Assembly (NCBI GenBank): GCA_048884965.1
Contig: JBHLQH010000009.1
Coordinates: 66,496 to 130,495 of the forward strand
Source of the DNA: Candidatus Thorarchaeota archaeon
GTDB lineage: Archaea > Asgardarchaeota > Thorarchaeia > Thorarchaeales > Thorarchaeaceae
Length of the DNA: 64,000 nt
Direction of reading: 5' to 3'
A program made the position numbers and the translations under genes. This document shows positions 4,201 through 42,737 of the stretch, piece by piece. Within the stretch, counting starts at the first letter, position 1; every line of letters begins with the position of its first letter. The notes beneath the pieces are model-generated. The model saw only the letters and a program-made list of their open reading frames with translations, searched no databases and was not told the DNA's origin.

Positions 4201-7200
4201 TCAATGTTCGGAACTATGACTCTTATCTCTCAATCAGCTCAAACTCTTCTGTCGTTCATCTTAATGAAACAGTATACATCTACGGATATCTGGAACATGA
4301 GAACGGGACTCCTTTGACTGGAATGTTAGTGAATATTCAATGGAATAACGGGTCCGTTACTGTCTTCCCTGTCTACACGAACTCCACTGGTTGGTACAAC
4401 TTCTACTATAATTGTTCTCTATCTATTGATGATGAGGGAACTGTCACCGTAACAGCAATTCATACTTCCATCGATCTATCATACAGTAGCTCAAGTGCTA
4501 TCCTCTCACCACCCCTCACACTACAACTATACCAACTGACTCTGGCTACTACTGTGGATCCAAATCCAGTCCATCTTGACGAATCCTTCATTTTTGATGG
4601 CACTCTTACGCTTGACATCAATGGGAACCCTGTATCAGGAGCTACGATCTGGGTTCATTACCGTTATTCTAACGGGACAGAATACTCTATTCCTAGACTG
4701 ACTAATTCAACTGGAGGATTCTTCTTCCAGTATAACTGCTCGCTAAGTGATACCTTAGGAGCAATCTATGTCTGGGCACAATTCAATAGCGGCAACCCTC
4801 TCTGGGATGATGCGATGTCCCTGAATCATACGGTGAACCTAATATTATACTCTATGACTCTGACCGCATTCACTGACAAGGCATCCTATTATCTTGATGA
4901 GGCCATCTATATTTGGGGTCAATTGACGTATTCGCATAACTCCACGCCATTGGATGGGCATCAGGTAAGGGTGTATGTATCCAATGTATATGGTCCCGTC
5001 TATTGGACGGTAGTAACGAATAGTAGTGGTCATTTCGAGTACACCTACCCCCTATCGCCAAGCGATGAAGGACCAATTGATATTTGGGCTACCTTCACGA
5101 CTTCAGTGCCATTATGGGACAATGCAACTTCTTCAACAGTCCAAGTCAATGCTATCAAGTACGATTTGACAATCGATTTGATGATTTCGCCTAATCCCGT
5201 GTATCTGAATGAAACTATTACCATTCTCCTTCATCTATACTTCTCGCACAATTCGACCGACATTCCTAATGAATGGGTGACCGTTTGGTGGGACAACGGG
5301 GTAGATTCCGCATTCATTGTGGGCGTAGTCCAGACAAACTCCTCAGGATATGCTGAGTTTACCTATTCGGGCATGGACGACTATACGATTCTAGTTGGAA
5401 ACGACCTCTATGCAGTCAGTGGTGGAACGACCTATTTTGATTATGTCACATCAAATCATGTTTATCTCGATTTGCAGAGATGGTCCACTCTTATCCATAG
5501 TCTTGATACAGGTGGCTCTACCAACTTTCAACTCACCGATACTGTAACGGTTACAGGATATCTTGTCTACGATGGACCCGAGCCAGACGTTCCATATTCA
5601 TCAATTCAGGTTGAGATTCTTGTCGATGGAGAGATAGTGGATACTACATTGACTGCATCTGATGGTTCATTTACAGGCTATTGGGTGATTCCTGACGATA
5701 CGACGACTGGCACTCATGTCATATCTGCTAGATTTTCGTCATCTGTAAACTGGATTGCCAACTATACTCTGGTTCCTGGAATCTCTGTTGATGTTACCGC
5801 AATCAATATCATTTGGACCTTCTCTGCGACCCCTGATCCGGTCTATAGAGGCAATTGGCTCTATATCTCAGGTACTTTGGACTTGGACAATGGTAGCGTC
5901 TATGCTGGAGCCATCGTTACAATCTATTGGCAAAGTCCATCCCAAACAATACCCTCCGAGATAGGCACTCGCATAACAGATGGAAGTGGATTCTTTGAGA
6001 TGCGGTACCGCGTAGGCGACACTGCTGAGCTAGGACTTACCATGATTCTGGTAGATTGCTCATCCGGAACCCCAGTTATTGCCTACAGTGGAGATTCTGA
6101 TACAGTTAGTGTTGAGATGATCCCAGTGACACTTACCGGAGGGGGTGATATATCAGGCGTCATCTATCTTGGTGATACCATTCAGTTCTCTGGTACTCTG
6201 ACCTTTGGTAATGGCACCTCAATGGTTGGCTACGATGTAAGTATCATCTGGGATGGTGAAGTGCTAACAACAATTACGATTACCGATGGGGTTGCAGGCG
6301 CGTTCTCATACTCGTATTTACTTCCGTGGGATGAATCCGTTCAAGACATCACCTACTATATTCAATTTGACAGGCCCTCTGAGGCATATCAGGAAGCACA
6401 GACGGTATCTACGGACTTGGAAATCCGTGATGCGGTATCCATAGCCATTGATACACAATCTGTGACAATCATCTTCCGTGATGACACTCTTCTCATTACT
6501 GGAATTGTGACCAATGGTGGTGGTCCGGATGCTGATGTGCCTTTGGAGATACTAGTTGATGGCGCTGCATCAGGTTCCTATGCCATAACCGATCAAAATG
6601 GAAGATTCTCTGCTTCCTTTCTCATTCATGACGCGATTGACAGCGGAACCCGTAACTTCACTGTAAGTCTCGATTCAACGAACTATGATCAGTCAAGTTC
6701 TCCAGCATACTGGTTGGTCGATGTTTACCTCCATTCATATATCACTGTCAACTTCCAAGATTTATCTGATCTAATGCCGGGCGGATCGTTCAACATAAGC
6801 TTCAATATCTTCGATGATGATCAAAACACACCCATCGGTCAGTTCGTTTCTGTATATCTTAATACTACCTACATTGGAGATCTCCTCGTTACTACAGCGG
6901 GTTACAACACATATCTCATGGACCTTGATGCATCTTGGTCTGGCGGGTCTGGTTACTTCGTAGCAATCGTTGAGTGGGATGGTGATTCGTTCATCGAGGG
7001 CTCTTCCGGTCAGACTCGTTATTCCATCCATGTATATGACGAGGTGGTGTTTAGTGGATTTCAACCCGGATATGCAGAAGTCAACGCACAGGTCTTGCTT
7101 CGAGGACAATTACTTGATGGTGCTGGTAATCCTATCATTGGGGCAACAGTCAATCTATATCTGAACACAACTCCTTCGCCTTTAGGACCATCAGCAGTCG

Positions 7201-41331: not shown

Positions 41332-41720
41332 CAGCCTCTCTCACAACCACACTCGCCATATTGGATATCGAGTATTAAGCATTCTGATGATCTTGGTTTT
41401 CCCCTCTGCTGCATTTGTGAAGTAAGCCCGTCTTTCCCTTTCTTCTTCCTATTTGCTTGTCGTATTTATTCTCACTCAGAATCCTAGCAATCAGGAAGTA
41501 TGTATCTGGGTCTTTCATAGTCCAGAATTCTCTAGATTTATATGCTTTCAAGTGGGGCATCAGAATACAATGTCAGACTACAGAAGCCTAGCGTCCTCGA
41601 ATCTGAGGACACTCAATAGCACACTATCTCAGTTGAGATAAGAGCTTGAGAAAGACTTCAGAGCCTCTGACATGCGATTTTTTCTGGATTGGACTGTTAG
41701 GGGCAGTCGATATTAGGAAA

Positions 41721-41809
41721 GCTGGTGTGGCTGAGTGATCAAAAGCGCGAGATTCAAACTCTTGGTCGGGTAGCCGACAACGTAGGTTAGAGTCCTACCA
41801 CCAGTACCA
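41721..41809 (+). tRNA. tRNA-Leu(CAA)
   Basis: Acceptor GCTGGTG/CACCAGT plus ACCA; anticodon arm CGAGA-TTCAAAC-TCTTG; long variable arm GTCGG-GTAG-CCGAC; T arm GTAGG-TTAGAGT-CCTAC. Confidence 0.88.
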
Positions 41810-41811
41810 AC

Positions 41812-41899
41812 GGCGCAGTGGCAGAGTGATCGAACGCGCTGGGCTTAGAACCCAGTCCTTAGTGTGACATCGCAGGTTTAAGTCCTGCCTGCGCCACCA
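41812..41899 (+). tRNA. tRNA-Leu(TAG)
   Basis: GGCGCAG/CTGCGCC plus ACCA; CTGGG-CTTAGAA-CCCAG; long, imperfect variable arm; GCAGG-TTTAAGT-CCTGC. Confidence 0.88.
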
Positions 41900-41901
41900 T
41901 T

Positions 41902-41987
41902 GCACCAGTAGTCAATCGGAAACGACGATGGACTGAGACTCCATGAGGGCAGCCTCTTTGCAGGTTCAATTCCTGTCTGGTGCACCA
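41902..41987 (+). tRNA. tRNA-Leu(GAG)
   Basis: GCACCAG/CTGGTGC plus ACCA; ATGGA-CTGAGAC-TCCAT; variable arm GAGG-GCAG-CCTC; GCAGG-TTCAATT-CCTGT. Confidence 0.88.
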
Positions 41988-41992
41988 ATCAT

Positions 41993-42078
41993 AGGCTAGT
42001 GGCGGAATATCAGACGCGCTTGGTTTAAGCCCAAGTCCGTTAGTCGGGTTGTAGGTTAGAGTCCTACCTAGCCTACCA
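41993..42078 (+). tRNA. tRNA-Leu(TAA)
   Basis: AGGCTAG/CTAGCCT plus ACCA; CTTGG-TTTAAGC-CCAAG; variable arm CCG-TTAGT-CGG; GTAGG-TTAGAGT-CCTAC. Confidence 0.88.
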
Positions 42079-42079
42079 A

Positions 42080-42153
42080 GGAGCAGTCGTTCAACGGGAG
42101 GACGCGCGACTGAAGATCGTGGGATGGTGGTTCGACTCCACCCTGCTCCACCA
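42080..42153 (+). tRNA. tRNA-Phe(GAA)
   Basis: GGAGCAG/CTGCTCC plus ACCA; D stem GTTC/GGAC; CGCGA-CTGAAGA-TCGTG; GGTGG-TTCGACT-CCACC. Confidence 0.92.
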
Positions 42154-42212
42154 AATACTATCGCCAATCGATTAGTTTCACACACAAGATGGTATCCTAG
42201 CAGAAATGTAAT

Positions 42213-42737
42213 ATGCTGAAGAACGAAGTCTATGTTATGGACGATACCAAGAAAAGAAGTATACCGTGTCTTCAGGTTGGTGACCCTGCGCCTGATTTTG
42301 TTCTCCCCGCGACCAACGACCAAGATGTTCATCTCTACGATCTATTAGACAATAATGTCGTCCTTGTATTCTTCTCAGATACGTTCACTCCATTTGCTAC
42401 AGGACAGGCAGATTCTTTCCTTCACCTGCATGAGTCCCTGAGCAATCTCGGTGTGACCTTTATTGGTATAGCCACAGAGCCCTTAGCGACACTGGAAACC
42501 TTCATTGAGGATCTTGAACTCCCATTTCTTATGGCCAGTGACTTCGATCGTAAGGTTTCGAAAGCCTATGGAGTCTATACTGATGTGCTCAGGAACTTGA
42601 GATGTGTCGCAAGACCGAGTATTGTGGTAGTTGATGTCGATGGTTTGATCGATTACATCTGGATCGATGAAGGTACAGAGGGAATACCCCCTGTACAGGA
42701 GATTGCAGACAGGATAATCAAGTCTAAACTGGATTGA
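42213..42737 (+). CDS. AhpC/TSA peroxiredoxin-like protein lacking the peroxidatic Cys
   Basis: L.VGD.APDF.L, VVLVFF...FTPFAT, SDFDRKVSKAYGV, ARPS..VD.DG.I.Y. The start may be ATG 42237. Confidence 0.82.
   Translation: MLKNEVYVMDDTKKRSIPCLQVGDPAPDFVLPATNDQDVHLYDLLDNNVVLVFFSDTFTPFATGQADSFLHLHESLSNLGVTFIGIATEPLATLETFIEDLELPFLMASDFDRKVSKAYGVYTDVLRNLRCVARPSIVVVDVDGLIDYIWIDEGTEGIPPVQEIADRIIKSKLD

Follow-up and report, generated by a model that had tools for sequence, protein, structure and literature searches.

A compact Leu/Phe tRNA cluster of an Asgard-type archaeon is probably one module of a second, horizontally acquired tRNA set

We analysed a 64-kb stretch of DNA (the window; C9:66496-130495) from a Candidatus Thorarchaeota archaeon, and we focus here on five tightly packed tRNA genes for Leu and Phe at positions 41721-42153 of the window. 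The genome (G000) is a 4.09-Mb metagenome-assembled genome (MAG) of 99 contigs, 95.7% complete with 7.2% contamination (a CheckM-type estimate), and its two Snf7 genes above the Pfam cut-off fit an Asgard archaeon. Our results suggest that the cluster is probably the detached Leu/Phe module of a second, intron-poor tRNA set of 25 genes (5 + 20) in three transcription units, which would have been horizontally acquired and would be accessory to the dispersed tRNA genes of the same genome. This reading is carried by the genes themselves, by their redundancy with the dispersed set, by their complementarity with a 20-gene array on contig C4, by the collinearity of both arrays with related contigs, by the patchy distribution and by the amino acid composition of short open reading frames (ORFs) that head the tRNA units.

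Genes of the cluster and of the host set

In the window ARAGORN detects five tRNA genes and no more, each on the plus strand, and the Rfam tRNA model scores them at 49.5-57.6 bits (cut-off 29). A preliminary description made from the letters alone had reported five tight, intronless Leu and Phe genes with encoded CCA at this place, and both programs agree with it. The genes are separated by spacers of 2, 2, 5 and 1 nt, which gives 5 genes in 433 bp or about 11.5 tRNA genes per kb. None of the five has an intron, all have the discriminator A73 and an encoded CCA, and the cloverleaf is intact in each. Since the dispersed tRNA genes of G000 likewise encode CCA, this feature is not distinctive for the cluster. 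With wobble, the anticodons read all UUN and CUN codons, as the same description had stated. The five genes are:

41721-41809, plus strand: tRNA-Leu(CAA), found by ARAGORN and Rfam; A73, long variable arm, A and not C at T-loop position 56, D-loop without the GG doublet
41812-41899, plus strand: tRNA-Leu(TAG), found by ARAGORN and Rfam; D-loop without the GG doublet, unusual U at T-loop position 56
41902-41987, plus strand: tRNA-Leu(GAG), found by ARAGORN and Rfam; canonical D-loop GG and canonical T-loop; anticodon without a counterpart in the related contig L037
41993-42078, plus strand: tRNA-Leu(TAA), found by ARAGORN and Rfam; same unusual T-arm as Leu(CAA), with A at position 56; D-loop without the GG doublet
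42080-42153, plus strand: tRNA-Phe(GAA), found by ARAGORN and Rfam (57.6 bits); A73, GAA anticodon and, by our own D-loop numbering, G20

The A73, the GAA anticodon and the G20 of this tRNA-Phe form what we take to be the identity set of the archaeal/eukaryal phenylalanyl-tRNA synthetase (PheRS).

The array and both of its junctions are spanned by Logan contigs from three sequencing runs, namely one contig of 67 kb (X1), one of 1.8 kb (X3) and overlapping contigs (X2), with no loose ends; the three runs come from one sediment study and are perhaps the source samples themselves. A fourth run of the same study holds a variant of the array with a few single-nucleotide polymorphisms. Because the Logan contigs run across the array and both junctions, the cluster is real and not a mis-join. 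An assembly or binning artefact, in which the array would be a chimeric insert or part of a co-binned element, would fit the contamination estimate of the MAG and the fact that tRNA arrays are typical of viruses. However, the spanning contigs, the location of the array on a 130-kb contig, 22 kb away from the contig end, and flanking genes that are 75-80% identical to those of a same-genus genome make such an artefact, which the preliminary description had named as a danger, extremely improbable. The composition around the array gives no island signal.

The dispersed tRNA genes of G000 have G+C-rich stems and many introns, and several of them are overlooked or misidentified by ARAGORN and Rfam. 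A pattern scan located a canonical host tRNA-Phe(GAA) at about C8:86-192; its T-loop is interrupted by an intron and a TATA box precedes the gene, which escapes both ARAGORN and Rfam. Canonical archaeal-type tRNA-Leu genes are present with the anticodons CAG (C15), TAG (C7) and GAG (C8), and the pattern scan gave a further Leu gene on C49. Several of these canonical Leu genes are called 'Stop' or 'Gly' by ARAGORN because of their introns. Between array tRNAs and the host tRNAs of the same anticodon, identity is only 56-76%. Canonical Phe and Leu genes thus exist elsewhere in the genome, and therefore the array is accessory and the set redundant, as the preliminary description had supposed. The view that the cluster holds the only or the main Leu/Phe genes of the genome, as an ordinary housekeeping cluster, could arise from ARAGORN alone, in whose output the cluster has the sole Phe gene and several Leu genes are misidentified; it is contradicted by the canonical genes and by searches of six same-genus and about 80 same-family genomes, in which the array was not found, and its probability is next to nil.

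The only tRNA-Cys gene found in G000 is present as identical copies at two contig ends (C41:23842-23917 and C45:1-74), and since the copies are identical and terminal they are probably one locus. Its T-loop is non-canonical and resembles that of the array-type Cys gene of L046.

The partner array, its relatives and their distribution

Whole-genome ARAGORN found a second tight tRNA array at C4:160883-163299 (L004:883-3299). It has 20 genes in 2.4 kb (about 8 tRNA genes per kb), counting a tRNA-Ala(UGC) with G3:U70 that the default ARAGORN run missed; both Ala genes retain G3:U70. The array is arranged as follows:

Block 1: Ala, Ala, His, Trp, Met, Pro, Glu, Gly, Gln, Tyr, Val
After block 1: a gap of 290 bp
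Block 2: Lys, an aberrant CAU gene, Arg, Arg
After block 2: a gap of 389 bp containing an ORF of 81 aa
Block 3: an aberrant Thr gene, Asn, Ser, Asp, Ser

The C4 array has no Leu and no Phe gene, and it also lacks Cys and Ile(GAU). Joined with the window cluster it makes 25 genes and a nearly complete minimal decoding set.

Contigs related to these arrays were obtained via metagenomic homologues of the 81-aa ORF. The most informative one, L037 (10,979 bp; JGI sample 3300040952), holds 24 tRNA genes in the gene order of G000:

L037, first part: Ala, Ala, Trp, Met, Ile, Pro, Glu, Glu, Gly, Gln, Gln, Tyr, Met, Val, Val
L037, second part: Leu(CAA), Leu(TAG), Leu(TAA), Phe, Lys, Lys, Arg, Arg, a homologue of the 81-aa ORF, Arg

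From this order it follows that the Leu/Phe block belongs between Val and Lys, which is the 290-bp gap of the C4 array. In blastn comparisons L037 was collinear with both G000 arrays at 70-74% nucleotide similarity; its similarity to the window block starts about 27 nt before Leu(CAA), and in the alignment the last 40 nt or so of the leader region are conserved. The Leu(TAG) genes of G000 and L037 are 86% identical, with two compensatory stem changes, no broken pairs and the U56 kept. Across the orthologous array pairs, stem differences are mostly compensatory. A second contig, L047 (1.8 kb; 81-aa ORF 88% identical), has the order Lys, Lys, Phe, Arg, Arg, ORF, Thr, Asn, Ser, Asp, Ser, in which Phe is located between Lys and Arg, and its Lys to Ser tRNAs are 84-87% identical to those of the C4 array. 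The relatives possess the Cys and Ile(GAU) genes that are missing from the G000 set. A tRNA-Tyr with C1:G72 and a short variable arm is of the archaeal/eukaryal type. Both features are found in the tRNA-Tyr of the G000 array and of L037, and the arrays are therefore adapted to an archaeal host.

These results bear directly on the Leu/Phe-specialised operon of the preliminary description, a dedicated aminoacyl-tRNA pool that would feed a non-ribosomal transfer reaction or boost the synthesis of Leu/Phe-rich proteins. Leu- and Phe-tRNAs are the donors of the L/F-transferase (Aat) and of cyclodipeptide synthases, the window cluster holds only Leu and Phe isoacceptors, and Leu, with four genes, is the most represented amino acid of the set. 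On the other hand, Pfam searches for Leu_Phe_trans (PF03588), ATE_C (PF04377) and CDPS (PF16715) gave no match in this 95.7%-complete genome, with positive results in the control genomes (FemABX was not searched). The C4 array lacks exactly Leu and Phe, the block is internal to a general array in L037, Phe lies elsewhere in the general order of L047, and six Leu codons mean that even a minimal full set needs three or four isoacceptors. Thus, unlike substrate tRNAs kept for an L/F-transferase or a cyclodipeptide synthase, the five genes are part of a general set in a genome in which no such enzyme was detected. Because of the missing transferase, the complementarity and the collinearity, a Leu/Phe-specific role has no support, and we consider it very improbable.

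The distribution of the array is patchy. In other genomes, where the preliminary description had advised looking for the same array, the Leu/Phe block was not found in 40 relatives, nor in a search of 399 other genomes of the phylum, which gave only 44-nt matches to single tRNAs. With the C4 array as the query, related multi-tRNA pieces appeared in two genomes. In G006, of the same genus, contig C338 carries Ala, Ala, two Ile-like genes, Pro, Glu, Glu, Gln and Gln; in G347, of the same family, contig C161 carries Thr, Asn, Ser, Ser and His. Two of the metagenomic contigs, L036 and L037, are made of short co-directional ORFs and encode HNH and LAGLIDADG endonucleases, a phage-type RNA ligase, and aRF1-like and GatB/YqeY-like proteins; some of their genes are 35-44% identical to G000 genes. 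A VapB-like ORF is also among the neighbours of related arrays. The pattern is consistent with horizontal acquisition of the array.

Eleven IMG/VR contigs (loci L012-L021) contain exact matches to the unusual 18-nt T-arm that Leu(CAA) and Leu(TAA) share, in which position 56 is A; most of these matches are within tRNA-Arg(TCG). ARAGORN finds tRNA genes in 10 of the 11, and at least nine have arrays of 7 to 28 tRNA genes. More specific probes had no match in IMG/VR. Exact-pattern scans for the shared Leu D-arm and the Leu(TAG) core found nothing in viral, genome and metagenome collections, the last evidently without L037, and blastn of the 433-nt array gave no match among INPHARED phages, PLSDB plasmids and E. 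coli genomes. An impression that the Leu D-arms look bacterial was dropped, as these three collections gave no match.

Virus hallmarks were not found in the PHROGs search of L036, L037, L041 and L051, in which only RNA ligase, HNH, LAGLIDADG and RNase H-like proteins matched. A contig with T4 gp13/gp15 shares just the RNA ligase (37% identical). No virus hallmark gene or integrase adjoins the G000 arrays, the flanks of which are ordinary cellular genes, and the tyrosine integrase family (Pfam Phage_integrase, PF00589) has zero matches in the 4.09 Mb of G000 and is present in all 14 control genomes. No CRISPR array was found, and the spacer-like links between L036, L037, L041 or L051 and G000 were limited to matches of 22-23 nt in canonical tRNA genes and once within a TPR gene.

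We propose that the spare set would belong to a group of tRNA arrays with a common gene order, which would be passed horizontally between archaea of the host family and elements resembling viruses or mobile genetic elements (MGEs). In the ancestral order the Leu/Phe block would have stood between Val and Lys, and in this genome it would have become detached as a 0.7-kb cassette upstream of AhpC.

Several observations accompany the partner array and its relatives. In the C4 array, tRNA-Val has the anticodon AAC, and tRNA-His has A73 and a G encoded at position -1, neither of which is usual in archaea; the same holds for the Val anticodon. The 'introns' of the aberrant CAU and Thr genes hold a second, near-duplicate anticodon-arm segment. 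The 81-aa ORF (C4:162461-162697; L004:2453-2698) belongs to no Pfam or PHROG family and has about 20 metagenomic homologues with an invariant core, which are found on tRNA-rich, virus-like contigs and on cellular-looking contigs free of tRNA genes (L035, L038-L040). IMG/VR holds no relative of this family, and the metagenome and genome collections hold one locus each, with no tRNA genes there. The neighbours of the C4 array are PadR, a histidine kinase, a solute-binding protein and MttB.

The aRF1-like and GatB/YqeY-like genes (L037:358-960 and L036:13472-13912) are 40-44% identical to G000 genes. The G006 piece (L063; G006:C338:1-6000) adjoins an IS607-like resolvase with TnpB and a class II CCA-adding enzyme (PolyA_pol + HD); archaea normally use the class I enzyme. 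The G347 piece (L062; G347:C161:21000-39409) is located at a contig end, and nearby are a C5 DNA methylase, an RNase H-fold protein and a weakly matching Ro60/TROVE-vWA-like protein.

Cassette anatomy and leader mini-ORFs

The unit in the window includes more than the tRNA genes. Its other features are:

41481-41502, no strand: left copy of a direct repeat, 22 nt, 73% identical to 42194-42215 at a spacing of 713 nt
41537-41543, plus strand: TATA-box-like element, a putative promoter; core motif shared with both C4 leader units
41570-41641, plus strand: leader mini-ORF of 23 codons, starting 33 nt after the TATA start, a placement that would make it leaderless or near-leaderless
41593-41610, plus strand: hairpin within the leader, kept in L037 with compensatory changes on both arms (two sequences only)
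41678-41683, plus strand: oligo-T tract of six T between the leader ORF and the tRNA genes, a candidate archaeal termination/attenuation signal
42194-42215, no strand: right copy of the direct repeat; similarity to the region upstream of AhpC in the same-genus genome G005 begins here

The same TATA core is found at C4:160770 and C4:161778, ahead of both C4 leader units. The leader ATG follows the TATA start by 33-37 nt in each of the three units of G000; in L037 and G006 the distance is 36-39 nt. The minimum-free-energy fold of the window leader has z=-3.2 against shuffles. At the homologous place L037 has a run of five T (5900-5904), and the C4 leaders have no run of five or more T. Oligo-T acts in archaeal transcription termination, and because of this known role the tract at 41678-41683 is a candidate terminator. 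Scans around the array for sigma-70-like promoters and hairpin terminators were empty, as expected for an archaeon. A small ORF at 41672-41716, which adjoins the array and contains a Phe-Phe-Leu run, was treated as a chance ORF; L037 has just the T-tract at the same place.

Taken together, the TATA box, the leader ORF, the oligo-T tract and the five tRNA genes are suggestive of a 0.7-kb cassette that may have been inserted upstream of AhpC, and the insertion is only suggestive because the flanking repeat is short. The AhpC and Na/Ca-exchanger pair has 75-80% protein identity to its counterpart in G005, where no tRNA gene lies upstream of AhpC. A clean empty site was not found in G005, in which only this pair is syntenic and the remainder is rearranged. 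The 342-aa ORF upstream of the unit has only weak homologues (25-28% identity). The C9 neighbours of the cluster are a caspase-like protein, a helix-turn-helix protein, AhpC/TSA, the Na/Ca exchanger and methyltransferases.

We compared the residues of the leader ORFs with two sets of amino acids that were defined by tRNA content only. The first-half set is the ten amino acids of C4 block 1, and the second-half set is Leu, Phe, Lys, Arg, Thr, Asn, Ser and Asp; the background for the empirical P values was 18,216 small ORFs of G000. The results show that the leader of block 1 (C4:160806-160865) has 15 of its 18 residues in the first-half set and covers all ten amino acids (P=1.6e-4), with one second-half residue (Ser). 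Its counterparts in L037 and G006 have the same composition pattern. For the leaders of the second half, the share of residues in the second-half set is 86% in the window (19/22, P=5e-4), 76% at C4:161815-161895 and 92% at L037:5789-5869. The L037 ORF has the same start as the window leader and a similar length, and the ORF at C4:161815-161895 is a paralogue in the C4 gap. In the pooled residues, first-half leaders have 46 first-half vs 6 second-half residues, and second-half leaders have 9 first-half vs 61 second-half residues. The P values range from 1e-4 to 0.019, and the six leader ORFs are two groups of homologues and not six independent trials. For Leu and Phe alone, the window leader shows no significant enrichment (5/22, P=0.19). 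The leaders of the array family are thus written in the amino acids of the tRNAs that they head, a pattern that holds for the family and not for the window unit alone. To our eye the window leader resembles the leader in the C4 gap, and we read it as a duplicated second-half leader, which may have been carried along when the Leu/Phe module became detached.

This composition raises the possibility of a self-sensing spare set. Ribosomes would stall on the leaderless mini-ORF for lack of charged tRNAs, and stalling would permit read-through past the oligo-T tract into the tRNA genes, as an archaeal ribosome-mediated attenuator. We put this idea forward tentatively, as possible but well short of an even chance. 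The leader has one conserved hairpin, and no alternative, mutually exclusive RNA structures were established.

In the reading that we favour, the unit would be transcribed from its own archaeal promoter as one precursor, which would be cut by RNase P and trimmed at the 3' ends. The array tRNAs would be charged by the host LeuRS and PheRS and would form a spare pool for ordinary ribosomal translation. Expression is probably conditional, by analogy with the bacterial L-array of Anabaena, and a selective benefit may come with it.

Several points weigh against this reading. The direct repeat that flanks the cassette is short and imperfect, and short two-copy repeats may arise by chance. The link between C4 and C9 is by binning only, in a MAG with an estimated 7.2% contamination, though both flanks are of the same genus (the genes beside the arrays on both contigs share 72-80% identity with same-genus genomes). 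The related contigs are all short (15 kb at most), and capsid, terminase and integrase genes were not found on them; because of this, 'virus- or MGE-like' is a term that we infer for these elements. No RNA runs were listed as holding the array stretch. In three of the four Leu tRNAs (CAA, TAG and TAA) the G18G19 doublet is missing and T-loop position 56 is A or U, and these altered elbows could reduce their function. Two aberrant genes in the C4 array (CAU, C4:162139-162275; Thr, C4:162831-162957) have duplicated anticodon-arm segments.

The altered elbows and the aberrant C4 genes would also be expected of a decaying relic, in which a piece of a tRNA island from a virus or MGE would have landed in the chromosome and would be drifting without function. 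The lack of Cys and Ile(GAU) from the set, the patchy distribution and a leader composition that matches the ancestral unit and not the present Leu/Phe content point the same way. In contrast, the five cloverleaves are intact and keep their identity elements, differences between orthologues are mostly compensatory, the odd U56 of Leu(TAG) is kept in L037, the promoter, leader ORF, hairpin and oligo-T tract are all retained, and the array persists in the variant of another sequencing run. We therefore regard a relic as unlikely, though far less so than an artefact or a housekeeping cluster.

A further proposal concerns the selective benefit and is compatible with the spare-set explanation. Divergent spare tRNAs might be a counter-measure, as they could escape tRNA-cleaving toxins or virus-induced tRNA degradation. 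The low identity between array and host tRNAs of the same anticodon fits this proposal, and related arrays are accompanied by an RNA ligase, a CCA-adding enzyme, a Ro60-like protein and a VapB-like ORF; the neighbourhood of the Anabaena L-array is also enriched in RNA-repair genes (PMC8421152). However, the surroundings of both arrays yielded neither an anticodon nuclease nor a cognate defence system, and we consider the proposal rather doubtful, if slightly less so than the relic. The preliminary description had raised such a backup of host tRNAs for the Leu and Phe genes; if true, the idea concerns the whole 25-gene set and not Leu and Phe.

Relation to known tRNA arrays and significance

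A tRNA array unit has been defined as at least 20 tRNA genes at a density of at least 2 per kb (Tran et al. 2016, PMC4758250). By size the window cluster, with 5 genes, falls below this definition and the C4 array, with 20, reaches it, and both have the required density. An archaeal tRNA cluster has been defined as at least 10 genes at at least 2 per kb (Morgado and Vicente 2019, PMC6333295); again the window cluster is too small and its C4 partner is large enough, and the tRNA-Tyr backs the archaeal type. As in accessory, or supernumerary, arrays, the set is redundant with a separate housekeeping set.

Like the L-arrays of bacteria (PMC4758250; PMC8421152), the arrays described here are dense, co-oriented, supernumerary, horizontally acquired and patchy, with a few members that are aberrant or pseudogenes, and in both cases the neighbourhoods are enriched in HNH endonuclease, RNA ligase and other RNA-processing genes. 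Unlike those L-arrays, they belong to an Asgard-type archaeal host and have archaeal TATA promoters and a tRNA-Tyr of the archaeal/eukaryal type, and the set is split over two loci and three units, each headed by a mini-ORF that mirrors tRNA amino acids. In Anabaena sp. PCC 7120 the trn operon stays silent until translational stress raises its expression 100-1000-fold, and HNH and RNA-repair genes abound in its neighbourhoods (PMC8421152). The control of the operon is thought to act via a repressor at promoter repeats, and the paper mentions no leader or attenuator (PMC8421152).

In a survey of 2,481 genomes, archaeal clusters were found in Halobacteria and Methanobacteria and none outside Euryarchaeota (PMC6333295). 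The clusters of those two groups (10-29 genes; PMC6333295) are also archaeal-type, redundant and linked to mobile elements, include some pseudogenes, and have Leu and Ser as the foremost isotypes; the window cluster differs from them in that its 5 genes are below the threshold of 10, and the likeness drawn here is one of description. With the clusters of large tailed viruses such as mycobacteriophages (PMC5966550, PMC6409571) there is a likeness in the tight arrays with homing endonucleases and RNA ligase in L036 and L037, whereas both G000 arrays lie among ordinary cellular genes with no hallmark genes.

The leader units can be compared with a different class of systems. Leader-peptide attenuators of the bacterial leu, pheA, trp and his operons have a short ORF rich in codons for the regulated amino acids, followed by a structure and a T-tract. 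The array unit likewise opens with a short ORF, then a structure and a T-tract before the first gene. In contrast to the bacterial attenuators, the regulated genes would be tRNA genes and not biosynthetic enzymes, the system is archaeal, no alternative hairpin pair was demonstrated, and the window leader is enriched for the ancestral set of eight amino acids and not for Leu and Phe alone.

Accessory tRNA arrays are thus already known from bacteria, their phages, haloarchaea and methanogens, and here one is described in an Asgard-type archaeon; our literature searches for tRNA arrays in Asgard archaea found no report. For annotation, the case teaches that the whole genome should be consulted before a special function is proposed for a small 'specialised' tRNA cluster. 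The match between leader mini-ORFs and tRNA content provides a testable candidate for translation-coupled control of archaeal tRNA supply. A mobile tRNA set that would be common to archaea and to virus- or MGE-like elements in sediments bears on the traffic of translation capacity between archaea and mobile elements. Taken together, these results suggest that two parallel decoding sets can coexist in one Asgard-type archaeon, a dispersed set rich in introns and a compact, mobile one.

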